Part shown: one piece after another, positions 1,753 through 64,000 of the stretch
How the letters are laid out: the number at the start of each line of letters is the position of its first letter
Numbering within the stretch: position 1 is the first letter of the stretch
Source of the DNA: Candidatus Competibacteraceae bacterium
Lineage (GTDB): Bacteria; Bacteroidota; Bacteroidia; CAIKAF01
Direction of reading: 5' to 3'
Assembly (NCBI GenBank): GCA_014879445.1
Contig: JACSSC010000026.1
Span: 2,033-66,032 of the forward strand
DNA: 64,000 nt
The notes under the pieces: generated by a model
Database searches by the model: none
What the model was told of the DNA's origin: nothing
Seen by the model: only the letters and a program-made list of their open reading frames with translations
Translations under genes and position numbers: made by a program

Positions 1753-1970
1753 GTGTTGAAATATTTAATAGTAAAATCAAATATGGGCATGAATAACGTG
1801 AATAAACATAAAGAATATAAATAACCTGAATGAAAGTTTTAAACCTATCCCCATACATAATTTATTCTTCTGTTTATCAGGTGCTTGAATTAATCACAAA
1901 TCCATATTGAAAACTTTTTCTACAATATGTATGGTTTGATTATTAAAAAAAAGAAATTTATCCTTTGATT

Positions 1971-2612: not shown

Positions 2613-2700
2613 ATTTTACAGAATAAGTTTTTCCTAACAATTATAATATCGTTTACGGGTATGCAAAGAAATTATCATCTTAGCAGTCAGATTAGCTATT

Positions 2701-12572: not shown

Positions 12573-12594
12573 TTTATACCTTTATACTGTGTTT

Positions 12595-21428: not shown

Positions 21429-21492
21429 ATTCTGAATATTAAGTTATTTAATGCAGGTTGTTAATCATACTGCCAATTTAATTTATTGAGAA

Positions 21493-29994: not shown

Positions 29995-30696
29995 TCAAAA
30001 AGCAGCTTCCATGCCTAGTTTTACAATGGGCATATCAGGATATCCATATGGGGTTCTGAATAATGGAGTAAAACGAACTGTAGTGACAGCTGCTATATGT
30101 GTCCACCCAAACTTAACATAGGCCTCGCCATAATTTGGCAGAGTATATGCAAGATTATGGGTGCGTGTCTGCTGAGATTCTCCACCAGGTAATTCTTCAT
30201 TATACACATGAAAAAATCGGATAGCCCAAACATGGTTCACGCCTGTTTCAATGTATATTCCATAACTACTTATTCGTTGTTTACCCAAATTAAAACGCAA
30301 AAAACCTCCACTAACAAAGCTCTGTAAATTAAACCATTCCGATTGGTGCAATATTGTGTCGGGCACTACTTTATGATAATCCTGCACCAAACGAAAAGTT
30401 TCGGTTGCGTATTGCAGTTTCACTCCGATATGAAACCATCTGGTAATTTTTCTTTTATAATCCAAGCCCAAGCGGAAATTCACACTATGACCCAAATGCA
30501 CGCGTGCACCATCGCTTTGAGGCCCCAATGCCCAATTGAGCTGCACGTACGGAAAGAGCATGTTAGGTGCATTTCGCCCCCATTTCTTCACACGTGGCGT
30601 ATAAGATACCGAATCTCTCCTGAAAATCATTCGTTGCGAAAAAGCGGAAAATGATATCAGAACTAATAATATTGTAATGAGGTTTTTCTTTATCAT
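29995..30696 (-). CDS. Hypothetical outer-membrane beta-barrel protein
   Basis: Signal peptide MIKKNLITILLVLISFSAFSQ, alternating amphipathic strands, and a C-terminal aromatic residue (...LGMEAAF). Overlaps the upstream S8 protease gene by 4 nt. Confidence 0.5.
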   Translation of the reverse strand: MIKKNLITILLVLISFSAFSQRMIFRRDSVSYTPRVKKWGRNAPNMLFPYVQLNWALGPQSDGARVHLGHSVNFRLGLDYKRKITRWFHIGVKLQYATETFRLVQDYHKVVPDTILHQSEWFNLQSFVSGGFLRFNLGKQRISSYGIYIETGVNHVWAIRFFHVYNEELPGGESQQTRTHNLAYTLPNYGEAYVKFGWTHIAAVTTVRFTPLFRTPYGYPDMPIVKLGMEAAF

Positions 30697-32297
30697 GGTA
30701 TCGTAATTTCAGCGGTATATCCACTCATGTGTAAACGAATGATATCTCCCGATTGAACAAATAAATGGTAAGAGTTTGATTTTTTTATTAAAGATAAATC
30801 ACGAGATAGTGTAAAATTTACCAAATGAGAATTCTCTATCTCTATCAAGCCATATGTCCGCAAAATACCCGATTGGGACTGCACATGAAAATATAGCAAA
30901 GGATTAACATCTGCTGAATGAACAAACAAGCTGTCAGGAAATATTAACAAGTCATCAGCAACAAGTTCTGTTTTGAAACACGGAAAAGGGCGAGGTAGTG
31001 CAAAAAATCTTGCTGCATGCGGAACGCCATAACCATGTGCATAATCAAAATAAGGATACAAATGCGAGGCCTGTTCAATGCGATTAATAATATCAATCGG
31101 TCGCAACGTATCGCCAAGTGCCTGCCATACACAAGCAGCAAGGCCTGCCACAAGTGGCGCCGCAAATGAAGTGCCTTCGGCTGCATATAAAGAAGAGCGT
31201 CCAAATACTGTTACCCATCCCGGGGCACAAACATTGGGCTTAAGACGGCCATCCGCAGTAGGCCCAACAGAACTATAAGACGTTTGAAAATCCGTTTCGG
31301 GCTCCACCGCTCCAACCGTCAGAATATTATCTGCATCAGCAGGAATTATCAATGACTTCCACATACCATTATACTCATTGCCGGCAGCATTCACCAACAA
31401 CATTCCCTTATCAGCGGCCATTGATGCCACACGGCTTAATCTCGATTGCCCATTTAACTCATGTCGTTCAAATCGAGGACTTGCATAGCCCAAAGAGCTG
31501 TTTACAATGTTTGCACCATGCATATCAGCCCATTCTAATGCTGCAATCCAACGATCTTCTTCCTTGCGATTTTCACTAAATACCGATTCGGTGCGTGCCA
31601 GCAGATAAGTAGCCCCTGTTGCAAGGCCGGTTTGTAAAGTATCATTCATACCTGCCAAACATGACAACACCATAGTGCCATGAGTAGCACCTCGATACAC
31701 ATGATTATCTTTTTTTATAAAATCCCAGGTTTTTTCGATACGATTATTTTGAAATAAGTGCGCAAAACCTGACGATTGGGGCACCCCCAAAAATCCTGCA
31801 TCAATGACACATATACGAACGCCTTTGCCTGTGTAATTTTGTTGTTGCAAAAAAGGAAGTCCAATTCTATTAAGCTGATGTTCAGAAAGCGCTTTCAACA
31901 ATGGTACCTTTCTTCCGGATGTAGTGCATATTGCAGTATATTCTTCATCATTTATTTTTTCAATTTGCATCACAAAAGGCAATGTTTTTAACTCTTCTAT
32001 TTGCTTTGCATCAGCATACACCTTAACAGCATTTAACCATCTGCTGCTATAACCCATCGAATCAACATAAAAAGAAACTTGCTGTAAATAGTTGGCACAT
32101 ACCGGATAATCGGAATAATCAAAATCAATGTGCATCAACTCTCTTCGCTGAATAGAATGCGCCGAAAAAAATGAAGAAAGTTGTACCTGAGATGTGTCTC
32201 CTTTGTCGGTCAAATAAACCCACCAAACATCCTGGGCGTACATGCCTGAATAGAAAAGCAAAAATACAATCAGAATAAAAAACCTCAAGACACTCAT
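30693..32297 (-). CDS. Subtilisin-like serine protease (peptidase S8)
   Basis: Asp-His-Ser catalytic triad motifs VRICVIDAGF, GATHGTMVLSCLAG and GTSFAAPLVAGLAAC. Signal peptide present. Confidence 0.85.
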   Translation of the reverse strand: MSVLRFFILIVFLLFYSGMYAQDVWWVYLTDKGDTSQVQLSSFFSAHSIQRRELMHIDFDYSDYPVCANYLQQVSFYVDSMGYSSRWLNAVKVYADAKQIEELKTLPFVMQIEKINDEEYTAICTTSGRKVPLLKALSEHQLNRIGLPFLQQQNYTGKGVRICVIDAGFLGVPQSSGFAHLFQNNRIEKTWDFIKKDNHVYRGATHGTMVLSCLAGMNDTLQTGLATGATYLLARTESVFSENRKEEDRWIAALEWADMHGANIVNSSLGYASPRFERHELNGQSRLSRVASMAADKGMLLVNAAGNEYNGMWKSLIIPADADNILTVGAVEPETDFQTSYSSVGPTADGRLKPNVCAPGWVTVFGRSSLYAAEGTSFAAPLVAGLAACVWQALGDTLRPIDIINRIEQASHLYPYFDYAHGYGVPHAARFFALPRPFPCFKTELVADDLLIFPDSLFVHSADVNPLLYFHVQSQSGILRTYGLIEIENSHLVNFTLSRDLSLIKKSNSYHLFVQSGDIIRLHMSGYTAEITIP

Positions 32298-41655: not shown

Positions 41656-42606
41656 ATGGAAAGCTTAAGCACACGACATCTAACTGGCATAAAAAACCTA
41701 ACCCTTCAAGATGTTGAGCTTATTCTTTCAACTGCTCTTCAATTTAAAGAAATCATCAACCGCCCTATCAAAAAAGTGCCCTCGTTGCGTGATGTTACCG
41801 TTGCCAATCTTTTCTTCGAAAATTCTACACGTACCAAACTTTCCTTTGAGATAGCCGAAAAACGACTTTCTGCCGACATAATCAATTTCTCATCCTCTGG
41901 ATCTTCGGTTAGCAAGGGCGAAACTTTAGTTGACACCGCCAATAACATTTTGGCAATGAAGGTGGATATGATTGTGATGCGTCATCCCCATCCCGGTGCA
42001 GCAATTTTTCTTGCCAATCAGCTAAAAAAATATCCTAAAAGCGCTCACGCCCAAATCATCAATGCAGGAGATGGCACACACGAACATCCTACTCAAGCGC
42101 TGCTCGACGCATTCTCAATACAACAAAGCTGTGGAAGTATCACAGGGAAAAAAGTAGCTATTATAGGCGACATCATGCACTCCAGAGTTGCCCTATCTAA
42201 CATTTACTGCCTCCAAAAAATGGGTGCAGAAGTGTGTGTTTGTGGCCCACCCACACTCATTCCCAAACATATTTCATCGCTGGGTGTTGCCGTTTCACAC
42301 AACCTTATTGAAACCCTCCTTTGGTGCGACGTTGCCAATATGCTCCGCATACAATTCGAACGACAACAACTCAAATACTTCCCCTCTCTCAGAGAATACG
42401 CCTTACATTTCGGCCTTACTAAAAAGAAACTCGATACACTTAACAAGCCCATCACCATCATGCATCCCGGCCCCATCAACCGTGGTGTGGAAATTACAAG
42501 CGATGTAGCCGACTCCGGCCACTCTATCATTCTCGAACAGGTAGAAAACGGCGTGGCCGTCAGAATGGCTGTTTTATATCTGCTTGCAGGCAAACACCAG
42601 TCCTGA
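41656..42606 (+). CDS. pyrB: Aspartate carbamoyltransferase catalytic subunit
   Basis: STRTR motif (FFENSTRTKLSFE) and HPxQ (HEHPTQALLD) carbamoyl-phosphate binding motifs. 316 aa. Confidence 0.9.
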   Translation: MESLSTRHLTGIKNLTLQDVELILSTALQFKEIINRPIKKVPSLRDVTVANLFFENSTRTKLSFEIAEKRLSADIINFSSSGSSVSKGETLVDTANNILAMKVDMIVMRHPHPGAAIFLANQLKKYPKSAHAQIINAGDGTHEHPTQALLDAFSIQQSCGSITGKKVAIIGDIMHSRVALSNIYCLQKMGAEVCVCGPPTLIPKHISSLGVAVSHNLIETLLWCDVANMLRIQFERQQLKYFPSLREYALHFGLTKKKLDTLNKPITIMHPGPINRGVEITSDVADSGHSIILEQVENGVAVRMAVLYLLAGKHQS

Positions 42607-42685
42607 TTCCTTGTTATTAATATTTAACAATCAACTTCTTTTTTTGCACTGCAAATACTCATTACCTTTGAAAAAAAATACAACC

Positions 42686-43543
42686 ATGAAAAAACTAATG
42701 ATTTTACTTGCTCCTTTTATTTTGTTCTCTTGTGGCGGCGGCTCTCAAGCCAATACGGATCAAATGAAACGTGAGCTTGACAGCTTAAAAAATCTGCAGG
42801 CCGAATCATCAGCTGCCGTTGATACATACATCGGCGATTTGAACGAAATTTACGAATCGTTGGAAGAAGTAAAAAGAAAAGAAGGTGCCATTTCAAAATC
42901 CGCATCCATGAGTGGCGAAATTGCTGCTGACAAAAAAACCCTGATACAAGAAGACATCATGCTTATTGATCAAATGATGCAGGAAAACAGAGAAAAATTA
43001 GAATCGCTAAGAAAAAAAGTAAAGAAAAGCGACCAAAAAATGGTTGAATTGGAAAAACTCATTGCTACCCTGCAAAAACAAATCGAAGATAAAGACAAGG
43101 AAATTGCCGTACTTAAATTACAACTCGAAGGCCTGAATATTGAATTAGACAACCTGACCGCTTCATACGACAATTTGAGCAAAGAAAACGAAGACAACAA
43201 AGAGACCATCCTTAAACAAACAGAAGAACTGAATACCGTATATTTTGTTATGGGTACTTTTAAAGAACTGGTTGATAACAAAGTGTTGGATAAAGGGGGG
43301 GCGTTTTCTGTAAAAGCAGGAGCAAAACTTTCTGCCGACGTAAATCTCGATTACTTCACAAAAGGTGATTTGCGCAATCTCAAAGAAATTAAAACCGGTA
43401 ACCGGAAAATCACCATTAAATCTTCGCACCCATCTGGCTCATATAGCTTAGTGCCTTCTGAAGGAAAAATTGAAAAAATTGTAATTAATGATGCACAATC
43501 CTTTTGGAAAAACTCAAAATACTGTGTTATTCTATTCAATTAA
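42686..43543 (+). CDS. Hypothetical coiled-coil lipoprotein
   Basis: Lipoprotein signal MKKLMILLAPFILFSCGGGSQ (ATG at 42686), followed by a long heptad-rich charged region. Confidence 0.55.
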   Translation: MKKLMILLAPFILFSCGGGSQANTDQMKRELDSLKNLQAESSAAVDTYIGDLNEIYESLEEVKRKEGAISKSASMSGEIAADKKTLIQEDIMLIDQMMQENREKLESLRKKVKKSDQKMVELEKLIATLQKQIEDKDKEIAVLKLQLEGLNIELDNLTASYDNLSKENEDNKETILKQTEELNTVYFVMGTFKELVDNKVLDKGGAFSVKAGAKLSADVNLDYFTKGDLRNLKEIKTGNRKITIKSSHPSGSYSLVPSEGKIEKIVINDAQSFWKNSKYCVILFN

Positions 43544-51276: not shown

Positions 51277-51527
51277 AGATAAAAGATTTCTGTATGCAAA
51301 TCTCATCTTATATAGGTTTCAGCTTAATTTCAACCTTCTGACAATGCGTTATATGCGATTTATCAGAATTTCGTTTCCAAGTCATAACAAAATTCTCTTC
51401 ATATTTTTTATCCTACAAATCAGCTCTCATATCAACCAAGTCGGCATTGAAACATTTATATGATATCAACATGGGAATATACCCGATAATCAGCCATTAT
51501 TGTAACTTTGTGTCTTACCATATAGAT

Positions 51528-52967
51528 ATGGATACTATTTTTTCTGATTTTGAAGTTCCCCAACCAACACAGTGGTGGGAAGATGTAAAAAAAAGCTTAG
51601 GTACTGAGGATTCCGTGTCTTCACTTATTACTCATACGCCCGAAGATATTGATATACAACCCATCTACACACAAAAACAAGCACAACAGGACGCTACCAT
51701 ACCCTCTAATTTATCTCAGGCATTAATATTTCAACCCGTATATGCCGACAATGCCATTGCTGCAAATCAAACCCTGCTGGATGCCTTATCACAAGGAGCC
51801 AACTCAGCTTGGATTACCGGCTCTACTTTACCCGATATAGACGACTGGCAACAACTTATGCAACGGGTTTCGCTTGATACCTTTGCCCCAGCATTTGATA
51901 TGGGAGAATCAAATCCTTCTTTACTTTTTCAGCTTATCAATCATTACCAACAAGTGGGCATTGACGAAAACAAACGTGCCGGATCCGTTTGGTTTTCCCC
52001 TCTTTCAACCGCTTTAGCAACAGGCCACATTGATTATCCACGACTCTCCTCCGAATCATTTTATCGCTCAATCTTCGACGAAACCCAAACACATCTCTCT
52101 GGATATCGAATCATTCACGCTTTACCTTTCCGACTCCGCGAAGCAGGAGGAAATGCTGTGCAGGAAATTGCATTGGGCTTGTCTGAGTTGGCAGCTTATC
52201 TCGACTGGTTTACTGACTGGGGATATACTCCTCAATCCATCGTTTCGCGGATGCAACTAGTGTTCGGTATCGGCTCCGACTATTTTATGGAAATTGCCAA
52301 AATTAGAGCAGGTCGGGTCTTATTATCACGCCTCGTTCAGGCATGGGATGATGCTGCCGGAAATATTCCTGTCTTTTCTCTTTCCTTACTCCGAAACAAG
52401 TCCATGTTTGATATTCACACCAATATTCTTCGTAGTGCTAACGAAGCACTATCAGCCATGATTGGCGGATGTGATGCCCTCTGTATCAGACCCTATAATG
52501 AAACACAAAAAATTCCCGACGATCATGCACTGCGCTTGTCTCGCAATATTCCGCTTCTGCTCCGACATGAGGCATACGCTGATTTTGTTACTGACCCTGC
52601 TGCCGGATCATTTTATCTTAACGAACTAACTGAACAACTTATAGAAAAAAGCTGGAAGCTATTTTTAGACATCGAATCCGTCGGCGGATACGAACAAGCC
52701 ATGACAACTGGAAAGATACAAAGCATAATTAGTGCTAACGACAAAAAAGAAAAAGAGGCCTTTCAGAAAGGACAAAAAATAGTTGTAGGTACCAATAAAT
52801 ATCCCATTAAAGACGAAATCATTGATCCCAACACAACGCCTATTTCTACTAATATTTTTGTGCATAGCTCAACTGATTTTGAACCCCTCAAACCCGAAAG
52901 GTTAAGCCAAAAACTCGACGAATTGCGTGTACAAAAACAAATCTCCCACAACGAAAAAAATGCATAA
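51528..52967 (+). CDS. mutA: Methylmalonyl-CoA mutase small (beta) subunit
   Basis: Mutase TIM-barrel-like domain without the DxHxxG B12 motif, immediately upstream of the large subunit. ATG at 51528 (MDTIFSDFEVPQPTQWWEDVKK) preferred to the longer track ORF. Confidence 0.8.
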   Translation: MDTIFSDFEVPQPTQWWEDVKKSLGTEDSVSSLITHTPEDIDIQPIYTQKQAQQDATIPSNLSQALIFQPVYADNAIAANQTLLDALSQGANSAWITGSTLPDIDDWQQLMQRVSLDTFAPAFDMGESNPSLLFQLINHYQQVGIDENKRAGSVWFSPLSTALATGHIDYPRLSSESFYRSIFDETQTHLSGYRIIHALPFRLREAGGNAVQEIALGLSELAAYLDWFTDWGYTPQSIVSRMQLVFGIGSDYFMEIAKIRAGRVLLSRLVQAWDDAAGNIPVFSLSLLRNKSMFDIHTNILRSANEALSAMIGGCDALCIRPYNETQKIPDDHALRLSRNIPLLLRHEAYADFVTDPAAGSFYLNELTEQLIEKSWKLFLDIESVGGYEQAMTTGKIQSIISANDKKEKEAFQKGQKIVVGTNKYPIKDEIIDPNTTPISTNIFVHSSTDFEPLKPERLSQKLDELRVQKQISHNEKNA

Positions 52968-52970
52968 ATT

Positions 52971-55085
52971 ATGAAGCCCGATTTTCATAAAATAAAGCTC
53001 CATACTCATTCATCTCATAAGCCGACAACATTACATACTAAAATTTCATCTGAAGGCATTGAAATAAAAAATCAATATACTCGCCAAGATTTACAAGGCA
53101 TGCATCACTTGCCTTACCTGTCGGGAATACCTCCATTTGTTCGCGGCCCCTATCATACTATGTATGTACGAAAACCCTGGACCATCCGACAATATGCCGG
53201 ATTTAGCACAGCCGAAGAATCCAATGCCTTTTATCGTAGAAATTTGGCTGCCGGACAAAAAGGATTATCTGTGGCTTTCGACCTGCCCACACACCGTGGC
53301 TACGACTCTGACCATCCACGCGTTTCGGGCGACGTAGGGAAAGCTGGCGTTGCCATAGATACTGTGGAGGACATGAAACGACTTTTTGATGAAATTCCCC
53401 TCGACCAAATGTCCGTATCCATGACCATGAACGGCGCTGTTATCCCCATCATGGCTTTTTATATTGTTGCTGCCGAAGAACAAGGTGTGTCGCCTGAAAA
53501 ACTCAACGGCACAATCCAAAACGATATTCTCAAAGAATTTATGGTGCGCAATACCTATATCTATCCACCCTCTCCCTCCATGCGTATCATTGCCGACATC
53601 TTCGCCTACACCTCACGCCATATGCCCAAATTCAACTCAATCAGCATTTCAGGTTATCATATGCACGAAGCCGGCGCACCTGCCGATATCGAGTTGGCTT
53701 ATACTTTGGCCGACGGCCTGGAATATATCCGAACTGGACTTAGAGCCGGCTTGTCAATTGATGCTTTCGCTCCTCGTCTTTCCTTCTTCTTTGCTACCGG
53801 CATGAACCATTTTATGGAAATCGCCAAACTGCGTGCAGCACGATACATTTGGGCCTCTTTGATCAAATCTTTTCAACCCACAGATGTCCGCTCTCTTATG
53901 TTACGCACTCATTGCCAAACCTCTGGATATAGTTTGACCGAACAAGACCCCTTCAATAATGTTACCCGAACTTATGTTGAAGCCATGGCAGCTGTTCTTG
54001 GTGGCACTCAATCATTACATACTAATTCGCTTGATGAAGCCATTGCCCTGCCTACCGATTTTTCTGCCCGCATTGCACGCAACACACAACTTGTTATTGC
54101 AGAAGAAACAGGCGTAACTCGTACTGTGGACCCATGGGCCGGCTCCTTTTATGTTGAACATCTTACCGGCAAACTCATTGAAAAAACATACGAGCATATA
54201 CGCGAAATTGAAGCACTCGGAGGTATGGCTAAAGCCATTGAAAACGGACTCCCAAAACTCCGAATTGAAGAAGCTGCTGCACGCAAACAAGCCCGTATCG
54301 ATGCCGGATTGGAAAAAATATTGGGTGTTAATGTGTATCAAACACACAATGAACCAAAAATTGATTTGCTGGAAGTTGATAATGAAAAAGTGCGTCGTCA
54401 GCAAATAACACAAATACTTCAGGTTAAAGAAAAACGTAGCCCTGAACGTGTACAAAAAGCCCTGGAAACTTTAACAAACGCATGTAGCGACAACCAGCTA
54501 AACCTACTTGAAGCCGCCATAATTGCTGCCAGAGAACGTGCCACTTTAGGCGAAATTAGCGATGCCATGGAAAAGGTTTTTGGCAGATATAAGGCGCAAA
54601 TTCAAACCATTTCTGGTGTATATTCAAACGAAATTCGTATGGATAATTCTTTTGCAAAAGCTATTCAACTCAGCCAAACATTTGCCGAAAAAAAAGGCCG
54701 CCGACCTCGGCTGCTCGTTGCCAAAATGGGCCAAGACGGACATGATCGTGGCGCTAAAGTCATTGCTACTGCTTTTGCCGATATCGGCTTTGATGTAGAT
54801 GTGGGTCCGCTTTTTCAAACCCCCGATGAAGTAGCTCTTATGGCTATTGAAAACGATGTGCATGTCGTTGGCATATCTTCTTTGGCTGCCGGTCATAAAA
54901 CATTAGTTCCTCAACTCATTGATGCACTCCGAAAAAAAGGTCGCGATGATATCCTGGTGATTGTTGGCGGTGTAATCCCTCAGCAAGATTATCCTTTTCT
55001 TTTTAATCACGGCGTTGCTGCCGTTTTTGGCCCCGGCACACATATCCCTTCTGCCGCTATGCAAGTCATAAAACTGCTTCTTTAA
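52971..55085 (+). CDS. mutB: Methylmalonyl-CoA mutase large (alpha) subunit, adenosylcobalamin-dependent
   Basis: Conserved N-terminal substrate-binding barrel ([59 protein letters not shown]) and a C-terminal B12-binding domain with DxHxxG ([11 protein letters not shown]). Confidence 0.93.
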
Positions 55086-55367
55086 AAAAATTTTGCTTTG
55101 CCTCTCTCTAAATGGAAAATACTGAATTATAAAAACAATATATCTCTTTCGATAAAAAAATCACGCTTCCTCATAATAAATAAACGCAAATGTTTTTGGG
55201 CGTGCCCCTTCGGGTCAGGCTATCCGCTACAAGTCCTCGCTACGCTGTGGGCTTTTCGCTCCTATCCTTCACGCAACTTCAATGACAAGTTCTGCCAACT
55301 TGCCTTCATTCATGTCTTTTCTGTTAACAGGAAATTTGTCAATATTGAAAATTAACCATGCGCTTGT

Positions 55368-56762
55368 CTATTGAAAAATAATCTTACCTGATTGTATGCC
55401 TTCTGCTTGGTTTCTAATTTGATAAAAATAAACGCCTTTGGCAAACCCCCTCAAATCAATATTTGTCAGTTCACCATCTAATTCTTTATAAAAAATCAAC
55501 ACGCCCTGCATGTTATACAAAAGAACAACACTCCCTTGCGTATATGATTTGATAGAAAAAATACCATTGCTCGGATTGGGATAAAAATTCGCACTGTTCT
55601 CTAAATCAAATTCGGAAACAGATAAAATAGCACAAATGCCCGACACTTGTATAGGTGTAGATCTGTCAACTGTTGTCGCATCAGCCAATTGTCCTTTATC
55701 ATTGCGACCACAAGCCCAAACAGTCCCGTCATTTTTCAAAAAAAGCGAATGATTATCTCCTGCTGCAATATCAACAATCTGATTTAAAGAGCTTATTAGT
55801 ACAGGTGATGATTTATCTATCATTGTGCCATCACCCAATTGCCCCTCGCTATTAAAACCACATGAATACACCGTGCCGTCATTTTTTAGATACAAAGAAA
55901 ACTCTGAACCTGCACAAATGGCTATAATATTATTTACTGTATTCACTTGCACGGGTGTTAGTTTGTTTAATGTTGTTCCGTCGCCAAGCTGCCCGTCACT
56001 ATTTAGGCCACATGCCCATACCGTGCCATCATTTTTTAAAAATAATGAATGGAATCCGTCTTTAGAGGCATCTATTGCAATAATGGAGTTTAACGAAGTA
56101 ATCTGTGTAGGAATATGTTTGTTAACCGTTGTTCCATCGCCAAGCTGCCCACTGAGATTGTATCCGCAAGCCCAAACAGATCCATCACTTCTTAAGAAAA
56201 GCGAATGGGCATCCCCTGCAGAAATAGCAATGATTCCACTAAGTGATTGAATTTGAAATGGTGTTGATTGGGCTATAATCGTACCATCTCCTAGCTGCCC
56301 ATCATCGTTATGACCACAGGCCCAAACAGTACTGTCGCTTTTCAAAAACAAGGTGTGACTTTGTCCTGCCGCAATGTCAATTACATCGCTAATGTTAACT
56401 TGAATGAGATTGGGCTGATGAGCAGTTGTCCCATTGCCTAATTCACCATCTCCATTATTGCCACACGCCCAAACGGTACCATCATTTTTTAAATAAATGG
56501 AGTGCGAACTTGCTGCATACACGGCTTTAATGTTGGTTAACGAAACGGCAACAGGATTTGGGTGTGCAGTGAAATCTGATGTACCATTTCCATGCTGCCC
56601 AAAAAGATTTGAACCGCTAATCATCGGCGTACTGTTGCTGCATAGAAAAATGGAGTGATTTGCTCCAGCTGCTATCGATTGTGCATTGACAAACGATGAA
56701 ATAACTGCATTGAGAAATAGTGAAAAACTGATTACTGAAATACTGCTAATTCTTGTTTTCAT
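55368..56762 (-). CDS. Secreted RCC1-repeat (seven-bladed beta-propeller) protein with T9SS type-A C-terminal domain
   Basis: Seven repeats of the form HSLFLKNDGTVWACGxNxDGQLGDGTT. Signal peptide. C-terminal Por_Secre_tail (NFYPNPSNGIFSIKS...GVYFYQIRN...KIIFQ). Confidence 0.8.
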   Translation of the reverse strand: MKTRISSISVISFSLFLNAVISSFVNAQSIAAGANHSIFLCSNSTPMISGSNLFGQHGNGTSDFTAHPNPVAVSLTNIKAVYAASSHSIYLKNDGTVWACGNNGDGELGNGTTAHQPNLIQVNISDVIDIAAGQSHTLFLKSDSTVWACGHNDDGQLGDGTIIAQSTPFQIQSLSGIIAISAGDAHSLFLRSDGSVWACGYNLSGQLGDGTTVNKHIPTQITSLNSIIAIDASKDGFHSLFLKNDGTVWACGLNSDGQLGDGTTLNKLTPVQVNTVNNIIAICAGSEFSLYLKNDGTVYSCGFNSEGQLGDGTMIDKSSPVLISSLNQIVDIAAGDNHSLFLKNDGTVWACGRNDKGQLADATTVDRSTPIQVSGICAILSVSEFDLENSANFYPNPSNGIFSIKSYTQGSVVLLYNMQGVLIFYKELDGELTNIDLRGFAKGVYFYQIRNQAEGIQSGKIIFQ

Positions 56763-56891
56763 TTTGATTTATGTTGAAATTAATTTATACGATATATGTT
56801 ATTCGTTTATATGAAATCATATTGAATGGCTTCATAAAATATCCCATTTATATAGATTATTATGTATAAAATAATAATACACCAAGTCAAT

Positions 56892-58961
56892 TTATGGGCA
56901 TTTAATAAATCTCTTAGATATTCCTTCCCCATTGATATCCAGTATTTGAATAAGATAAATCCCGGTTTCTAAATGACCGGTTTCTATAATAAAATCTGTG
57001 CCAGAAAATTTTTTAGAAAAAATCAATTTGCCTGATGTGTTATAAATGAAAACTTCCCCGTTAAATGATTCAGGTAATTGAGATATGTTAAGAATATGAC
57101 TTGTGGGATTGGGATAAATAGAAATTTGATAAGCAGAAATTTCCTCTATAACCAATGTTACCAATGATGAGTCAAAATAAAACTCTGAAGTATTTCCCAA
57201 CAAATCCGTAGCAGTAGCCGTAACCTTATCTGTGGGCAAAAGGCCTGCACAATCGAAAGACCAGTTGCCAAATGCATCTACTGATGTGAATCCGAGAAAT
57301 TCCTTCCCCTGTGCATTTTCAGATTTAAAAATCTCAACTTTAATACCCGCCGGGCCGCCACTCAGCGCAAAATCCATAATTCCTGAAATGGTTGTAACGC
57401 CCGAAATCGTATTATAAGAAACATTTTGTATTTCAGGGTAATTGAGCAAATCGTTGGGGCCTGTGTCAAAATCACCCGTATCGTTTAATGTTACACCGGC
57501 AGGGTACAAGTCAATTCCTATACCACCATTCCCGAAAATCGAATTTTCAGTAAATGAGTTATAGCGCTCCGCAGCCGTCATAACAGTAATTCCACTCCCG
57601 CCATTAAATGCAATAATGTTGCCCTCTCCAGGCCTTCCTACTAAGTTGTATCGAGGGCCTTCTCCCAAACGAACACCGTCAAAGCCATTGCCAATAGGGA
57701 AAACCCCGCTAATGTCTGTGCCAATTTTATTGCGCACCATCACATTATTATCAGTGCCCAAAAGATGCAACACTATACCATTTTGCAGATTGCCCGAAAT
57801 AACATTGCCATCAATAAAATGATTAAAGCTGGGCCCGTCAACTACTATGCCGTTGGCATTGGGCAGGGCTGTTGTTCCTGCAGCATTGGTGCCAATAAGA
57901 TTGCCTATAACACTGTCGCGCTGTGTGCCGGGATTGTAAAGAAAAACACCATAACCGGAATTGCCGGAAAGCAGGTTGCCTGCTCCCGACTGGTAACCCC
58001 CTAGCATATTATTGCTTGCCCCATCGTCAAACAGCACGCCGTATGTATTAGGAATAGAAATATTGCCTGTAATATCAGTTCCTACATAATTACCAATGAT
58101 TAAATTGTAATCACAACCTGCGCCAAAAACCGGTATCCCATATGCTATATTCCCGGAAACATAATTGCGATCTGCAACGGAATATCCGCCAACCGTATTA
58201 TACTTTGATGTGCCCTCTATGCTTATACCATCGTAGTTGCGTACAGCCGCATCACCCGTTCGATTTATACCTACATAATTACCCTTGATGATGTTATTGT
58301 TCGAATTTGCTATGCGAATGCCAACATGGTTATTGCCGGAAACAATGTTGCGATCAGATAATGTACTGCCTCCAATTGTGTTGCTGTGTGCAACCATGAT
58401 TTCAATGCCGTTGATGTTGCTTAACGTGTCAGTAGCATTATAATTACAACCTATATAATTACCTACTATGAAATTGTTGAAACAGCTACTGCCTGTAACT
58501 GAAATGCCAATCGTAAATCTGCCAATGATAAATCCCCTCACTGTAACATTGTTTACATTATAAAGATGAAAAGCAAAATCAGAACCGGGTTGATAATTCC
58601 CATCAAGCATGATTTCCGGTCCGTATGGATTGGTATCTCCTTGATTAGCCGATTGGGTTGTGCCATCTATAACCAAGTTGCTCCGCATAATAATGGGTAA
58701 CGTGGATGATGGTGTTATTTTCCAAACGCCCTGTGAGGTAATATAATTGGCATCACTTGTCGGAATATTAAACACAATGATATGGCTACCAGGCGTTATG
58801 TTAGCGTCAGTTATTGCCTTGCGTAATGAGCCACTTCCACTATCGTTCGTATTCGTTACGGTATAGGTTGCTGCTTTTGCAACTAAAGAAAATAAACTAA
58901 ATATGGTAAACCATAAAATTAATTTTGATAGATTCATTGCTTTGTTTGATACCGAATTCAT
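56892..58961 (-). CDS. Secreted choice-of-anchor-Q-like / right-handed parallel beta-helix repeat protein with T9SS C-terminal domain (689 aa)
   Basis: N-terminal ATYTVTNTNDSGSGSLRKAI motif after the signal peptide, many GNxIGxN beta-helix repeats, a DTGDFDTGPNDLLNYPEI segment, and a C-terminal Por_Secre_tail (ISIYPNPTSHILNI...GIYLIQILD...). Confidence 0.8.
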   Translation of the reverse strand: MNSVSNKAMNLSKLILWFTIFSLFSLVAKAATYTVTNTNDSGSGSLRKAITDANITPGSHIIVFNIPTSDANYITSQGVWKITPSSTLPIIMRSNLVIDGTTQSANQGDTNPYGPEIMLDGNYQPGSDFAFHLYNVNNVTVRGFIIGRFTIGISVTGSSCFNNFIVGNYIGCNYNATDTLSNINGIEIMVAHSNTIGGSTLSDRNIVSGNNHVGIRIANSNNNIIKGNYVGINRTGDAAVRNYDGISIEGTSKYNTVGGYSVADRNYVSGNIAYGIPVFGAGCDYNLIIGNYVGTDITGNISIPNTYGVLFDDGASNNMLGGYQSGAGNLLSGNSGYGVFLYNPGTQRDSVIGNLIGTNAAGTTALPNANGIVVDGPSFNHFIDGNVISGNLQNGIVLHLLGTDNNVMVRNKIGTDISGVFPIGNGFDGVRLGEGPRYNLVGRPGEGNIIAFNGGSGITVMTAAERYNSFTENSIFGNGGIGIDLYPAGVTLNDTGDFDTGPNDLLNYPEIQNVSYNTISGVTTISGIMDFALSGGPAGIKVEIFKSENAQGKEFLGFTSVDAFGNWSFDCAGLLPTDKVTATATDLLGNTSEFYFDSSLVTLVIEEISAYQISIYPNPTSHILNISQLPESFNGEVFIYNTSGKLIFSKKFSGTDFIIETGHLETGIYLIQILDINGEGISKRFIKCP

Positions 58962-58970
58962 TGCTAATTT

Positions 58971-59068
58971 TTTCTGCTTTACTAAGGTAATAAGGTACGT
59001 TTCGTGTTTTATTTCTACTTTACTAAGGTAATAAGGTACGTTTCGTGTTTTATTTCTACTTTACTAAG
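58971..59068. repeat. Tandem direct repeat, 41-bp unit x ~2.3 copies, in the intergenic region between the two beta-helix paralogs
   Basis: Unit ctttactaaggtaataaggtacgtttcgtgttttatttcta at 58977..59017 and 59018..59058 (identical), with a partial third copy at 59059..59068. It begins about 10-16 nt upstream of the start codon of the 56892..58961 gene. Confidence 0.85.
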
Positions 59069-59259
59069 ATATGTTGCTGTGTTTATTCGTACGCTTTGCT
59101 TCTTGATTTTATCTGATTTTAATTCCCTACTGCTCTATATAAATCATTGTTGCCGATTTATCCGTCATTTCAAACCTTATTACCTTCGTAAACGCAATAC
59201 TTCAATTTCTTTCTTTTCCTTATTAGCTTATTTCATCTCTCCTACACCTCAAAATCAAT

Positions 59260-62200
59260 TTATCTCATCATTACAATTTTCTTTCTGGCAATCAACCCTT
59301 CTTGGTCTGATAATGTAATCATGTAAAACCCAACAGCTAGCTGCGATAGGTTGTATAGCAGGACATGATCTCCAGAAGAGAAAATTTTGTTCTCCAATTG
59401 TGTGATCAGTTTTCCATCAAGCGAAAATATTTGTATGCAAATTTGTTTTTCTTGGTCAATAGAGAACTCCATTTTAATTTGATCGGATGCGGGATTGGGA
59501 TAAACTTTGAAAACATCATTAAGAAATTTTTCTTCAACCGAAATAACCATCCCAAAATTGGCAGCAAACTCCGAGGTATTGCCCATGATGTCGGTTGCAG
59601 TGGCAGTAATTTCATCGCCGGCATTTGCACCTGTACCCATGAAAGTCCATTCGCCCGAACTTCCTGAAAAAGTATGCCCGAGATATGTTATTGCGCCACC
59701 ATGATTAAACATGTTTGCAGCATCAGATTTAAAAAGCTCAATACGGATGCCGGCAGGCCCACCATATGAGTTACAATCTATGACACCGGTAATGAAGATA
59801 CCATTATTTGCAGTATCGTTTGTGGCGCTCATTATTACAGGATAATTCATGCCCTCATTGGGTCCGCCATCTGCATCTCCTCCATCATTGGCATTCACCC
59901 CAAAAGGTTCAAGGTCAATATCCATGATACCGTTGGCAAAAATGCGGTTGGCCGAAATGGTATTAAACAATGTTCCGTTGCCGGCCACCACAACACCCGC
60001 TGTATCGTTATATGCTATGATGTTTCCTTTGTCGGGCATACCGATTTGGTTGTGAGTAGCGTTAAGCGTTATAACCACACCGGCTCGGCGATTAGGCAAT
60101 GGCGTGATACTATCGGCTGCAACGCCTATCATATTGCTAAAAACTTGATTGCTATCACTGCTTTCGTAAATGATAATACCTATTTCGAGATTGCCACTAA
60201 TAAGGTTTTTCTCCACAAGATTGCTGCTTGGATTAGAAGCAAAGCCAATCCCATGTTTATTAGGGATAGCTGTAGTTCCGTTCACATCAGTGCCTATGTA
60301 ATTACCAATAATCTGATTGAAAGAAGTTCCTACATCAGCCAATTCAATTCCTGCAAAAACATTCCCTGAAATGATGTTTCTGTCGGTAGGGGTTGTGCCT
60401 CCAATGGTATTGTATTTGGTTCCCCCACCAAAAATAAAACCGATTTGATTGGGTACAGCGGCAGTACCAGAGGCATTAGTACCAATCCTGTTACCTTTCA
60501 GTTCGTTGTAATTGGAGCCGGTAGTAACGATAAACATCCCATAGGCCATGTTTCCTGAAAGCACATTATTAATAAAAGGATTATGATGAGAGCCCCCATC
60601 CACACAAATGCCCGTGGCGTTGGGCAGAGGGTTGTTGCCCGTAACGTCCACGCCGATATAATTGCCAATCGTATAATTATAAGATGAATTGCCGTAAATA
60701 TCATGACCATAAATGCGATTGCCGGAAATGATGTTACGCTCGCCAGCGGTATAGCCGCCCGCTATGTTGTGCTTTGACCCAGTATTAAACATCAGTCCGT
60801 TGGCCTGAATAAGCGTATCGTTGGCATATTTGAAAGCATTCATGCCGGTAATATCAGGGCCTATATAATTTCCGATGACAATATTACTGTCAGATGCTTC
60901 CACTATTAAACCCATTTCTATGTTTCCGGAAATAATGTTGCGCTCACCTGCTGTTGTTCCGCCAACCGTATTTTTGTTTGCGTTGCTTTTGATATAAATG
61001 CCTGTATGATTACTTAGCGATACTGTGCCTGAAGCATTTGTTCCTATCAGGTTTCCTTTGATGGTGTTCATTCGCGTGCCTGAGTATGTCAGCACCATGC
61101 CGGCCAAAGTATTTCCCGAAATCACGTTCCCCTCGCCTGCAGCACCACCGCCAATAGCGTTTTGCGAACCCCCACTAATTAGGATGCCATTTGCATTAGG
61201 TATGCTATCGCTGCCGGTAATGTTGGTGCCGATATAATTCCCTTTGATGCTGTTGTTTTTAACATCTGCCCCCAGCATGGCAATGCCTGCATCAATGTTT
61301 CCTGATATGATATTGCGCTCACCTGCTGTGGTACCACCGATGGTGTTGCCAGGGCTTTCGTTGATGGCTATGCCATAATAGTTTGAAATCGTATCGCTGC
61401 GCAACAAGCCATTGGCATTGATGCCAATATAATTTCCTTTGATACTGTTACCTGTAGAAAGATAAGAATTGATAGCGATACCGGCATAGCTATTTCCGCC
61501 AATGATATTGCGAAACGTGGCGCTGTTTCCACCAATGATATTGTTAGCAGATGAATCAATAGCAATACCATAATAATTAGAAATAGCGAACATCGCAGTA
61601 CGGTCGGTGCCAATTTTATTTCCACGTATGATATTATTGTTGGATTTGCGGAGGCCGATACCCGTTGTAATATTGCCTGACAAAATATTATCGCGAATGG
61701 TATTATTGCTTGCATCTAATATGGCGATACCTATATCATTTGCATCGGCCAATGTAGCATTATAGTTCACCCCGATATAGCAATCCGAAACCGTGCAACT
61801 ACCGTTGGGATAAGTAAGAAACTTAGTGATGGTAACAGCATAAAGAAAACCGTTGATGATAAAACCATTCAACGACCCGCCCGATAAAGGAAATGCAAAA
61901 CAATACGTATGACCGGCGGTACTTCTGACACGAATTTCAGGTCCAAATGGGTTGGTATTGCCTTGATTTATTGTTTGAGTAGAGCCGTCAATTGAAACAG
62001 AAATGCTGTTGATGGTAGGCAAAAGTGTAGAAAGAGTAATGGTGAAAACACCTGTTACTGCATCATAGTTGGGATCGCTTGTAGGAATATTAAACACGAT
62101 ATTATCTGCTTGCATGGGATTAACATTCACTTGATTAATGGCTTCGCGTAAAGAGCCGGGGCCACTATCGTTGGTATGCGTTACTGTAAAGGTAGCAGCA

Positions 62201-62271
62201 TTGTTTGTATGATAATATAAAACTGCTGAAACGAAAAATATCGCATGCAAAACGAGCCGTTGGTTTTTCAT
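59260..62271 (-). CDS. Secreted choice-of-anchor-Q-like / beta-helix repeat protein with T9SS C-terminal domain (1003 aa), paralog of 56892..58961
   Basis: N-terminal ATFTVTHTNDSGPGSLREAI motif, a long array of GNxIGxN parallel beta-helix repeats, NDGGDADGGPNEGMNYPVI, and a C-terminal Por_Secre_tail (FKVYPNPASDQIKM...GFYMITLSD...KIVMMR). Confidence 0.8.
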   Translation of the reverse strand: MKNQRLVLHAIFFVSAVLYYHTNNAATFTVTHTNDSGPGSLREAINQVNVNPMQADNIVFNIPTSDPNYDAVTGVFTITLSTLLPTINSISVSIDGSTQTINQGNTNPFGPEIRVRSTAGHTYCFAFPLSGGSLNGFIINGFLYAVTITKFLTYPNGSCTVSDCYIGVNYNATLADANDIGIAILDASNNTIRDNILSGNITTGIGLRKSNNNIIRGNKIGTDRTAMFAISNYYGIAIDSSANNIIGGNSATFRNIIGGNSYAGIAINSYLSTGNSIKGNYIGINANGLLRSDTISNYYGIAINESPGNTIGGTTAGERNIISGNIDAGIAMLGADVKNNSIKGNYIGTNITGSDSIPNANGILISGGSQNAIGGGAAGEGNVISGNTLAGMVLTYSGTRMNTIKGNLIGTNASGTVSLSNHTGIYIKSNANKNTVGGTTAGERNIISGNIEMGLIVEASDSNIVIGNYIGPDITGMNAFKYANDTLIQANGLMFNTGSKHNIAGGYTAGERNIISGNRIYGHDIYGNSSYNYTIGNYIGVDVTGNNPLPNATGICVDGGSHHNPFINNVLSGNMAYGMFIVTTGSNYNELKGNRIGTNASGTAAVPNQIGFIFGGGTKYNTIGGTTPTDRNIISGNVFAGIELADVGTSFNQIIGNYIGTDVNGTTAIPNKHGIGFASNPSSNLVEKNLISGNLEIGIIIYESSDSNQVFSNMIGVAADSITPLPNRRAGVVITLNATHNQIGMPDKGNIIAYNDTAGVVVAGNGTLFNTISANRIFANGIMDIDLEPFGVNANDGGDADGGPNEGMNYPVIMSATNDTANNGIFITGVIDCNSYGGPAGIRIELFKSDAANMFNHGGAITYLGHTFSGSSGEWTFMGTGANAGDEITATATDIMGNTSEFAANFGMVISVEEKFLNDVFKVYPNPASDQIKMEFSIDQEKQICIQIFSLDGKLITQLENKIFSSGDHVLLYNLSQLAVGFYMITLSDQEGLIARKKIVMMR

Positions 62272-62461
62272 ATTTCAATTAAAATAAAAATTTAAATATA
62301 CTCAATTTTTATGTTTCGGAAAAAAAATTTGTTAATGGTGATTTTTATTCTGCTCATTTTAATTATTTGTGTTTTTTGGCTGTTATTAACCAACTATGCC
62401 CGATGATGATGCAGCATTTTATCATGCTGCTGTCTTATCCTGAATGTCTTTTTGCCCATCC

Positions 62462-62508
62462 AAAAAAAAGCCGAAATAATTGAATTATTCCGGCTCCTTG
62501 TTTTTTTT
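62462..62508. terminator. Hairpin flanked by A8 and T8 runs; likely a terminator for the minus-strand gene ending at 62522, and possibly bidirectional
   Basis: 12-bp stem gccgaaataatt / aattattccggc with one mismatch and a 1-nt loop, at 62470..62494. A8 lies at 62462..62469 (reads as T8 on the minus strand) and T8 at 62501..62508. Confidence 0.55.
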
Positions 62509-62521
62509 ACTGAAAGGGGTG

Positions 62522-64000
62522 TTAATCCACTTTAATCATGCGTTTTGTTTCCACAATTTTTCCGTCCACCACCAAGCTATAATTGTATAAGCCGCTGCTG
62601 AGATCGTCGGCATATACTATCATACGGCCATGACCGGTTTCGCGTATATCAGTCATTTGGATAACCTGTCCTAAATTGTTGGTAAAGATGAGTTGGGCGC
62701 GTTGTATCCGTTCGGGCAAATACCAGCTAATGGTGGTTTGTTCTTTGAAAGGGTTGGGCGCATTTTGGTTGAGTACTATCATGTCGTCGTTGCGCAGGGT
62801 AACTTCCATTGTATATTCGTGTTGAATATAAGGCTGGGCGTTGTTGTTGACCGGTGTTTGCATGGGTTGCGCCTGATTACAGCAGTTGGTTATCATCCCT
62901 GTAAGTAGTTGCAATTGTTGTTGCATGGATTGCATGAGTGAATCCTGCTGGACAATTTTTTGCTGCTGCTCCTGAAATGCTTCAATCAGCAGAGGAATGA
63001 TTTCTATATAGTTGACACTTTTTACAGTTGTCGCCGCATGAATTACCTGTCCCAGCGAATCGTACACCGGAGCAACCCGGGTATTTTGTACCAGTTGAGG
63101 AAAAACCTGTTCTACCTGTTGTGCTATCAGCCCATAATGACTACCGGCACTAAGGTTTAGTTGTGGTACAGCAGCGTTGCTGTACTCAAATGAGATGGGT
63201 TGCAGTTGTTGTAATTGCTGAGATACATTATTCAGCGATTGAACATTGGTTTTAATCACTGCATCAGAAGGATTTGTGAAAGTACCGGTTACATGTACAT
63301 CTCCTTGAAACCAACCGGCATAGCTAAAACCGGAGTCAATGGGTGCTTCGGCATAAATACCGTATTGAGTAGCACCGGTAACGGCATTGCTTGTAAATTT
63401 TCCTGCATAGTAAGTACTGGAAGTTGACAAACCACTGGCACTCCCTTCAATACCGGTAGTGGTACTACTACCGTTCGAACCACTAAAAAATCCGCCTCGT
63501 GTATGAAAACCGTTGCTGGCAGTTCCATATACACCGATATTATAACTCATGTTTGCATTTGCACTCGCCTGAAAAAAACCACCATAATTGATATTACTAT
63601 TGGTAGGGTTCCCGGTATTTGCCAGGCCCATCACACCGTAATTTACTACCCCTCCGTCTGATGAAAAGTATCCACCGATATGCTTGTTTTTGTTTTCTGG
63701 CAGATCAACCCCATCCGCCATACCTGCTACACCAATATAATAATAAGGACCCTCTAATATAGGCGAAGCAGAAGAATTTCTCCCTAAAACACCGACTGTA
63801 TGATAGGCAACCGGTTGCCCGGGATTTTCCCATACGCTGAGCCGAGCCGGTAATTGAGCAACAGAGCTGGGATACCCGATGCCCACCGAATTGATGCCTT
63901 GCTGTGTAGGGTGTTGGCCTAAGAAATAAACATTATTGTCCATCATGGGAATTTCGCGGTTGTTGAGCAACTGGGCTGGATTGCCTGCTGCATTGATATC
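62522..64000 (-). CDS. Partial CDS (N-terminus beyond window end): secreted protein with a phage tail-fibre-like Gly-rich region, an intramolecular-chaperone (peptidase S74-like) domain and a T9SS C-terminal domain
   Basis: The frame is open from 64000, and the track's M at 63970 is a TTG. Gly/Ser-rich beta-rich middle region. Segment SDAVIKTNVQSL...ISFEYSNAAVPQLNLSAGSHYGLIAQQVEQVFPQLV resembles the tail-spike/endosialidase chaperone signature. C-terminal Por_Secre_tail (NAPNPFKEQTTISWYLP...GLYNYSLVVDG...KVD). Confidence 0.7.
   Translation of the reverse strand, partial: DINAAGNPAQLLNNREIPMMDNNVYFLGQHPTQQGINSVGIGYPSSVAQLPARLSVWENPGQPVAYHTVGVLGRNSSASPILEGPYYYIGVAGMADGVDLPENKNKHIGGYFSSDGGVVNYGVMGLANTGNPTNSNINYGGFFQASANANMSYNIGVYGTASNGFHTRGGFFSGSNGSSTTTGIEGSASGLSTSSTYYAGKFTSNAVTGATQYGIYAEAPIDSGFSYAGWFQGDVHVTGTFTNPSDAVIKTNVQSLNNVSQQLQQLQPISFEYSNAAVPQLNLSAGSHYGLIAQQVEQVFPQLVQNTRVAPVYDSLGQVIHAATTVKSVNYIEIIPLLIEAFQEQQQKIVQQDSLMQSMQQQLQLLTGMITNCCNQAQPMQTPVNNNAQPYIQHEYTMEVTLRNDDMIVLNQNAPNPFKEQTTISWYLPERIQRAQLIFTNNLGQVIQMTDIRETGHGRMIVYADDLSSGLYNYSLVVDGKIVETKRMIKVD

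Follow-up and report, generated by a model that had tools for sequence, protein, structure and literature searches.

At the right-hand end of a 64,000-nucleotide stretch of contig JACSSC010000026.1, analysed here at its full length and referred to as the window, stands a run of genes, g1 to g4, encoding predicted type IX secretion system (T9SS) cargo, with a fifth such gene beyond the last base. This run is, with good probability, an ordinary cluster of cargo genes, in which three independent units have come to lie side by side in a lineage-specific manner, and not one operon or system. The first unit would be a conserved pair, in which a small protein with a type B sorting domain (CHU_C) is joined by a tail-fibre-like one whose sorting domain is of type A; the second would be a long and a short beta-helix protein, again a conserved pair; and the third a single RCC1 protein. 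Both pairs are found at other Bacteroidota loci, without each other and without an RCC1 gene. The suggestion of the initial annotation that genes have accreted at one locus is therefore a fair one.

The open reading frame (ORF) listing of the window places g1 to g4 consecutively on the minus strand in the region 55368–64000 (Table 1), with g1 adjoining, and convergent with, mutA and mutB on the plus strand. The frame of g4 is open through base 64000, and the 'TTG start' listed at 63970 is an artefact of the ORF listing; the N-terminus seen there reaches a maximum 10-residue hydropathy of only 0.48, and no signal peptide is visible in that part. Public contigs identical or near-identical to the window, obtained via exact protein look-up, extend the locus. 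On one of them, L085, the order is a murC-like gene (opposite strand), the gene for a 318-residue CHU_C protein, g4, g3, g2, g1, and mutB and mutA (opposite strand). The full cluster comprises five cargo genes over ~11 kb, lying between the murC-like gene and mutB, with housekeeping genes on both sides.

Much of what had been read from the window alone agrees with these data. The unrelated passenger domains beside housekeeping genes (RCC1, beta-helix and S74), the beta-helix paralogy, the AT-rich spacers of 129–298 bp, one of them with a tandem repeat, and the neighbouring mutAB were all found as described. The 'four consecutive same-strand cargo genes' are real ORFs, but the fourth is incomplete and the run consists of five genes that continue past the window. 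Likewise, a signal peptide together with a Por_Secre_tail domain was claimed for all four proteins and is found in g1 to g3, whereas in g4 the sorting domain is sub-threshold when scored alone, and the signal peptide lies outside the window and is separated from it by a TAG codon. The C-terminal domains do score as T9SS sorting domains, that of one of the four only with the help of its family.

Each product would be exported by Sec through its N-terminal signal peptide; the T9SS would then recognize its C-terminal beta-sandwich domain and take it across the outer membrane, to be released or attached to the surface. The predicted passengers (a seven-bladed propeller, beta-helices with an Ig-like domain and a trimeric, S74-folded rod) would point to surface proteins that bind, or that act on polysaccharides.

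Recurring gene pairs and the RCC1 gene

The CHU_C protein (318 residues in L085) has a signal peptide and a type B domain (PF13585, 68.2 bits against a cut-off of 27; TIGR04131, 45.2 against 35). A homolog stands directly upstream of g4 relatives (33–70% identity) at eight other loci. The two genes of the pair (9016–13057 in L085) are separated elsewhere by 22–28 bp where genes were called, and the CHU_C protein measures ~315–325 residues. These loci lie in unrelated contexts, with no beta-helix or RCC1 gene nearby; three further loci carry a full-length g4-family gene without a CHU_C homolog. Type B proteins are held at the surface through PorP-like partners (PMC9143113). No PorP/SprF-like partner, which is frequent but not obligatory, is present among the genes called within 10 kb in L085. 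By analogy, the conserved type B neighbour could serve as an anchor for the fibre.

The beta-helix proteins g2 and g3 are paralogs (36–38% identity, E = 3e-86), and the NosD/Beta_helix signatures PF05048, PF13229 and TIGR03804 are found in these proteins (PF05048, 31.1 bits in g2 and 51.7 in g3; PF13229, 44.0 in g3). The g2 family is large (5162 matches of ~680 residues at 50–74% identity, from many Bacteroidota). A long gene followed by a short one recurs in different contexts in L091/L092 (6996–12040; 1001 and 679 residues, one-base overlap) and in L093 (10001–15092; 1008 and 685 residues, 7-bp gap), and the long gene occurs alone in L094. The spacing of 298 bp seen here (257 bp in sister strains), AT-rich and with a tandem repeat, is unusual for the pair. 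Together, g2 and g3 appear to be an old conserved gene pair. An origin of the two genes through recent local duplication was considered and rejected, given their 36–38% identity and the presence of the same pair at these other loci.

In g2, a beta-helix at residues ~30–480 is followed by an Ig-like sandwich (510–585), a flexible linker and the sorting domain. Its AlphaFold model (mean pLDDT 92.3) is a right-handed beta-helix with regular three-strand rungs. Foldseek matches of this model in the PDB are all beta-helices, from polysaccharide-active proteins and tailspikes, with a TM-score of at most 0.45; the search returned generic beta-helix matches only, from which no function can be assigned. 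Judged by the model, g2 may be an adhesin, or a surface protein that binds or modifies carbohydrates; the data do not distinguish between these.

The remaining unit, g1, is an RCC1 propeller, with 285 bits for the RCC1-like domain PF25390 and 260 bits for PF00415. PF00415 matches in six stretches and PF13540 in seven, giving seven tandem repeats. Its N-terminus, MKTRISSISVISFSLFLNAVISSFVNA, resembles a signal peptide. An identical NCBI protein is named 'T9SS type A sorting domain-containing protein', and g1 is one of many proteins of ~460–480 residues with the very common architecture of RCC1 repeats plus sorting domain.

In g1, g2 and g3 the sorting-domain matches all exceed their cut-offs (Table 1) and end at most four residues from the stop codon. 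At the other end, a heuristic check of charge, hydropathy and A-x-A-like sites, on which the signal-peptide calls are based, found two K/R residues in the n-region, a hydrophobic core with a 10-residue hydropathy of 2.36–2.40 and A-x-A-like sites after it.

Table 1 Coordinates of the cargo cluster, its parts and other features of the window
Feature	Position	Strand	Details
Cargo ORF	5373–6419	+	348 aa; signal-peptide-like N-terminus; Por_Secre_tail above cut-off; passenger without Pfam match
Cargo ORF	10147–11148	−	333 aa; signal-peptide-like N-terminus; Por_Secre_tail above cut-off; passenger without Pfam match
Tandem cargo paralog	17679–21428	−	1249 aa; GEVED, PKD and Por_Secre_tail; 49% identical to the next
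Tandem cargo paralog	21493–25215	−	1240 aa; GEVED, PKD and Por_Secre_tail
mutA	51447–52967	+	
mutB	52971–55085	+	
g1, RCC1 propeller	55368–56762	−	464 aa; Por_Secre_tail
g1 type A sorting domain	55371–55583	−	residues ~394–464; PF18962 40.7 bits (cut-off 27), TIGR04183 41.5 bits (cut-off 23)
g2–g1 spacer	56763–56891		129 bp; G+C fraction (GC) 0.19
g2, 'short' beta-helix	56892–58961	−	689 aa; Por_Secre_tail
g2 sorting domain	56895–57119	−	residues 615–687; PF18962 46.2 bits (cut-off 27), TIGR04183 38.8 bits (cut-off 23)
41-bp tandem repeat	58971–59068		2.4 copies; 98% matches; Tandem Repeats Finder score 189; in the 298-bp spacer
g3, 'long' beta-helix	59260–62271	−	1003 aa; Por_Secre_tail
g3 sorting domain	59263–59505	−	residues 923–1003; PF18962 44.4 bits (cut-off 27), TIGR04183 36.5 bits (cut-off 23)
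Site of 49-bp tandem duplication in g3	60355–60404	−	duplicated in L085/L086 (L085 15175–15273)
Intrinsic-terminator-like hairpin	62462–62499	−	16-bp stem, then 8 T; just past the g4 stop codon
g4, tail-fibre-like, with S74	62522–64000 (window end)	−	492 codons visible, the C-terminal part of a 1018-codon gene; Por_Secre_tail
g4 C-terminal sorting domain	62525–62758	−	borderline when scored alone
Peptidase_S74 intramolecular chaperone domain of g4	63089–63268	−	PF13884; residues 235–294 of the fragment

The tail-fibre-like gene and variation among strains

The full g4 gene was read from contigs L002 and L085. Its family (318 matches in Bacteroidia, Flavobacteriales and Crocinitomicaceae, typically of ~1000 residues with a signal peptide) frequently bears the NCBI label 'tail fiber domain-containing protein'. 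The S74 domain scores 46.0 bits for PF13884 (cut-off 22, E = 6e-12) and contains, at 63251–63268, the Ser-Lys dyad motif SDAVIK; S771, D772 and K776 are invariant among 92 aligned homologs, and SDxxxK is present in 119 of 119. This region aligns to the cleavage-site region of MyRF (7dc3), and in Bdellovibrio Bd3182 the SDxxxK motif self-cleaves (PMC10769870). The S74 domain of g4 is not C-terminal, being followed by ~160 more residues that form a long helix (857–900, ~45 residues) and the T9SS sorting domain. Because the chaperone sits between the fibre and the export signal, the predicted self-cleavage would remove that signal.

The model of P0001, the intact 1018-residue form of the protein, has a mean pLDDT of 68, with a confident beta-rich N-terminal region (50–430), a glycine-rich middle of low confidence, which is what modelling a trimeric rod as a single chain should give, and a confident S74 domain followed by the 45-residue helix and the sorting domain. 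Its top PDB matches are the MyRF ICA domain (7dc3, TM-score ~0.7), the endosialidase chaperone (3gw6) and a Bdellovibrio mosaic adhesive trimer (MAT) fibre (8ond); the N-terminal domain (50–430) has no PDB match at E < 1e-3. The model of the sorting domain matches 8gl8_D (probability 0.99), the C-terminal domain (CTD) of RemZ, a T9SS substrate, in the SprA translocon complex, and 31 of the 35 homologous C-termini of the family (95 residues each) match PF18962 at E ≤ 1e-3 (best 1e-9); a PDB profile search with the family alignment of this domain gave no matches. We infer that intact members of the family form trimeric surface fibres that process themselves and reach the outside through the T9SS.

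Further relatives were seen in other settings. A homolog of 70% identity in an NCBI metagenome-assembled genome (MAG; GCA_026418175.1, L088 10001–13068) is called as two ORFs (678 and 336 residues), either a further independent disruption or an assembly error. Two IMG/VR contigs classified as viral (L175 460–1182 and L176 5001–5621) encode a portion comprising S74, coiled-coil and T9SS sorting domain, with 26–29% identity to g4-family residues ~760–1015; they may be prophages, mis-calls or phage proteins that bear a T9SS signal.

The initial annotation had asked whether the island varies between strains. Near-identical contigs from strains 99.3–99.9% identical have the same gene content throughout, but their alleles differ in three respects: a TAG codon in g4, a 49-bp duplication in g3 and a 41-bp unit upstream of g2. 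Contig L002, which shares 4,962 nt with the window at 100% identity, carries g4 at 1321–4377 as a gene split by an in-frame TAG (stop codon at 1918–1920) just past the window end: a 199-residue ORF with the signal peptide is followed by the TAG, two sense codons and an 816-residue ORF that contains the fibre, the S74 domain and the sorting domain and is without a signal peptide. In this strain's allele, signal peptide and sorting domain thus lie on separate ORFs and do not share a polypeptide. The NCBI protein MBE2246530.1 corresponds to the 816-residue form and directly follows MBE2246528.1 and MBE2246529.1, which are identical to g2 and g3 of the window; therefore, it is the TAG allele that the window's strain carries, and there g4 is probably a pseudogene. 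Sister strains (ENA contigs L085/L086, Logan contig L087) have the intact gene, P0001, with signal peptide and sorting domain together. The split allele differs from the intact one by TCG > TAG and, 7 bases later, TGG > TGT. Each form (1018/1021 residues intact, 816/817 split) was recovered from several public samples; four of the cluster members are short and five full-length.

The duplication in g3, present in two ENA assemblies (L085/L086), shifts the frame and splits the gene into ORFs of 658 and 360 residues; one Logan contig breaks at the same site. The 41-bp repeat lies 10–107 nt upstream of the g2 ATG and has 2.4 copies in the window versus 1.4 in L001, L085 and L086, the extra unit being at 59028–59068; Logan contigs (n = 3) break within it, at 59039. 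Its predicted RNA structure is unremarkable (z = +0.89), and it occurs nowhere else in the window. In its 1.4-copy form, an imperfect direct repeat of ~16 nt spaced 41 nt apart is seen, which could have been the seed of the duplication.

Single-nucleotide polymorphisms (SNPs) between the window and L085 are unevenly spread, with 13 within 70 bp (63502–63571) in the glycine-rich fibre repeats of g4 and seven within 10 bp (62311–62320) in the g4–g3 spacer, versus only four in the 6.4 kb of mutAB, g1 and g2 (52530–58960). The two clusters suggest small recombination or conversion tracts, not scattered point mutations. With a nonsense codon in g4 here and a frameshift in g3 in the sister strains, the surface-protein genes would therefore be individually dispensable; that the disabled cargo gene differs between strains fits dispensable, exposed surface proteins.

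Cargo density, regulation and origin

Por_Secre_tail domains are present in 8 of the ~47 window ORFs of at least 150 residues (~17%), namely g1 to g4 and four ORFs elsewhere (Table 1). In Fluviicola taffensis, which belongs to the group supplying the nearest relatives of the window's organism, at least 230 T9SS effectors are predicted (PMC10202324). A run-length estimate (our own arithmetic, taking ~9% cargo outside the cluster, an assumed 3500 genes and independent placement) gives ~3 expected runs of three when the conserved pairs are counted as single units. The clustering is thus largely explained by gene pairs and a high cargo density, and the cluster is only mildly more than chance.

Some observations weigh against so ordinary an account. 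When the five genes are counted singly in the same estimate, only ~0.02 runs of five would be expected, so that five in a row are somewhat above independent placement. All cluster genes lie on one strand, and the stretch from g3 through g2 to g1 yielded no terminator. The sorting domain of g4, scored alone, falls below both cut-offs (PF18962, 20.9 against 27; TIGR04183, 22.3 against 23). No gene of the T9SS machinery (GldK/L/M/N, SprA/Sov, PorU or PorV) was found in the 64-kb window or in a 10-kb extension, so that it is the cargo that points to the presence of a T9SS. Shared regulation, or some selection that favours co-location, may also have contributed.

The initial annotation went further and saw a dedicated secretion-cargo neighbourhood, which in its strongest form would be a co-regulated adhesin or surface-coat locus whose five genes work together and are kept by selection. 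All five genes are T9SS cargo on the same strand, their run exceeds what independent placement predicts and the two pairs within it are truly conserved as pairs. However, the two pairs and the RCC1 gene were never together at the other loci examined, and the cluster includes neither a regulator nor a machinery gene. Its gaps of 129, 298 and 250 bp (GC 0.31 for the g3–g2 and 0.29 for the g4–g3 spacer, compared with 0.397 for the window) differ from the gaps of 0–28 bp in the conserved pairs elsewhere and, with the strong terminator after g4, do not describe a single operon. The terminator hairpin, which splits g4 from g3, has a folding energy of −21.7 kcal/mol (z = −3.5), which only 1 of 200 shuffled sequences attains. 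A scan for sigma-70 promoters and terminators gave counts at shuffle level with a model unsuited to Bacteroidota, and the Bacteroidetes −7 motif TAnnTTTG has no exact match in the three spacers. Cargo is, moreover, frequent across the whole window, including the second pair at 17679–25215, and different members of the cluster are knocked out in different strains. A dedicated locus is accordingly unlikely. A horizontally acquired genomic island or prophage remnant is more improbable still, even though PHROG tail-fibre families match g4 (E = 7e-15), g4 has a GC of 0.444 against 0.394 ± 0.026 in other genes and homologs of g1 to g4 are absent within 10 kb of mutAB at 80 loci of other Bacteroidota among the matches listed. 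The PHROG matches are confined to residues ~650–900, around the S74 domain; only ~13% of g4 has any match among 50,697 phage genomes; IMG/VR holds no full-length relative; and the g4 family is made up of cellular proteins of Bacteroidota, in the hundreds, that bear signal peptides and T9SS domains. The cluster flanks in L085 contain no integrase, transposase, repeat, phage gene or other mobility gene, and tRNA and Rfam scans of the window returned nothing. Cluster genes have a GC of 0.39–0.44, and their third-position GC and codon usage resemble the rest of the window (correlation of relative synonymous codon usage 0.84, against 0.92 for a control of two halves of the remaining window). As to mutAB, the closest MutB proteins among the matches listed in a scan of a genome collection are only 71–72% identical (Flavobacteriales/Crocinitomicaceae) and include no genus-level relative for insertion boundaries; at ≤72% MutB identity the gene on the other side of mutAB is also not conserved, so that absence of the cluster there says little. 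The island or prophage origin was rejected on the lack of mobility genes and tRNA, the ordinary composition and the cellular nature of the g4 family.

The allelic differences could also be read as those of a contingency locus, in which reversible tandem duplications (49 bp in g3, 41 bp in the g2 leader) and nonsense alleles switch surface proteins on and off under pressure from phages, predators or grazing. Within 11 kb, strains that are otherwise nearly identical show three independent polymorphisms that are disruptive or alter length, with only four SNPs in the adjacent 6.4 kb; both g4 alleles are present in several samples, and SNPs cluster in the glycine-rich fibre repeats. Tandem duplications can, in addition, revert through recombination between their copies. 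Yet the haplotypes observed number only two or three, there are no homopolymer or short-unit tracts of the kind that typify phase variation, and slippage could not reverse the TAG allele; plain relaxed selection, acting on dispensable genes, accounts for the data as well, and the contig breaks at the repeats could be due to the assembler alone. Such switching is thus a distinctly improbable explanation, a little more so than a dedicated locus. The juxtaposition of three independent units, in a cargo-rich genome, remains the reading that we prefer.

Proteins identical to g1 to g4 are deposited under 'Candidatus Competibacteraceae bacterium', a gammaproteobacterial MAG, and the gene content of the contig is that of Bacteroidota. 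Because T9SS cargo and a MutB closest to those of Flavobacteriales/Crocinitomicaceae belong to Bacteroidota, the contig is probably mis-binned, and its host would be a cargo-rich member of the Flavobacteriales.

Several other features of the window may be recorded. Within the otherwise AT-rich convergent spacer between mutB and g1, a GC-rich patch of ~80 nt (55195–55275) folds no better than shuffled sequence, occurs once in the window and matches no Rfam family. A 319-residue protein (42584–43543, plus strand) matches the NCBIfam family of Cbp1 collagen-binding glycoprotein adhesin lipoproteins (214 bits, cut-off 90) and is an adhesin candidate. Among housekeeping genes, a 547-residue caspase-domain (Peptidase_C14) protein (6599–8242, minus strand) and a 534-residue subtilase (30693–32297, minus strand) have no detected sorting domain. 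A 738-residue ORF (12589–14805, plus strand) and the 178-residue ORF that comes next (14783–15319) match neither Pfam nor NCBIfam.

Known systems and biological meaning

All parts of the cluster are of known kinds: type A and type B cargo, an RCC1 propeller, parallel beta-helices and an S74 chaperone. Like type A CTD cargo such as Porphyromonas gingivalis RgpB and the effectors of Flavobacteriales, the proteins combine a predicted Sec signal peptide and a C-terminal beta-sandwich of ~75 residues with diverse passengers in a cargo-rich host (PMC10202324; PMC5445135; PMC4804311). They depart from that norm in the sub-threshold g4 domain. In the reviewed model organism, cargo genes are described as not adjacent to T9SS machinery genes (PMC10202324; PMC5445135; PMC4804311). 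The fifth protein shares its type B domain (PF13585/TIGR04131) and signal peptide with the cargo of the SprB–SprF and PG1035–PorP systems (PMC9143113; PMC12618676); unlike in those systems, no PorP/SprF-like gene was called within 10 kb, and the conserved neighbour is a type A tail-fibre-like protein. The beta-helix proteins share fold class and repeat signatures with the epimerases AlgE4, AlgE6 and AlgG, phage tailspike depolymerases and the NosD family, but at TM-scores of only 0.3–0.45 and identities of 9–19%; no catalytic residues were identified in g2 and g3, and the two may be adhesins and not enzymes.

The closest counterparts of g4 are the MAT S74 fibres of Bdellovibrio bacteriovorus (Bd3182, Bd2133), which are likewise cell-encoded and share with it a signal peptide, a conserved beta-rich N-terminal domain, a fibre region and an S74 domain with SDxxxK (PMC10769870; PDB 8ond, to which the g4 model matches). 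In MAT fibres, S74 forms the C-terminus, whereas in the g4 family a coiled-coil helix of ~45 residues and a T9SS sorting domain follow; phylum and export route also differ, and in the g4 family a CHU_C gene usually comes first. With the chaperones of phage endosialidase and the T5 L-shaped tail fibre (PF13884; 3gw6, 4uw8) and with the eukaryotic MyRF ICA (7dc3), g4 shares a Pfam match above cut-off, the invariant dyad and the fold (TM-score ~0.7 to 7dc3). It differs from the phage chaperones in its non-phage context and in its extra C-terminal modules, and its self-cleavage is a prediction. A literature search found no paper on S74 domains in T9SS cargo or on the clustering of cargo genes.

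A bolder reading concerns the first pair, which might form a two-component, cell-encoded fibre exported by the T9SS. The S74 domain would trimerize the rod. Since it precedes the sorting domain, self-cleavage there would strip off the export signal, a task taken over from, or shared with, the PorU sortase; the type B partner would hold the freed fibre on the cell, much as a phage fibre is held on its baseplate, and the nonsense and duplication alleles would be on/off variants of exposed surface structures. This is doubtful, although less so than the rival explanations weighed above. If true, it would make these proteins a Bacteroidota counterpart of the Bdellovibrio MAT fibres and reveal a new way of handling a T9SS signal.

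On the preferred reading, that of three juxtaposed units, the cluster contributes nothing new by way of mechanism; cargo genes side by side are to be expected where Bacteroidota with a gliding-type T9SS encode up to hundreds of them. What looked like an 'island' breaks down into smaller conserved gene pairs, each moving on its own, and the genes with strain-specific inactivating mutations in this wastewater-type population are those for exposed surface proteins. Threads of some novelty are the conserved pairing of a CHU_C protein with an S74 fibre and the position of S74 upstream of the sorting domain, which are traits of a widespread family and not of this locus. That large and uncharacterized family of tail-fibre-like T9SS proteins would place a self-cleaving chaperone between passenger and export signal, and thereby raises a testable question as to the order of trimerization, cleavage and export.

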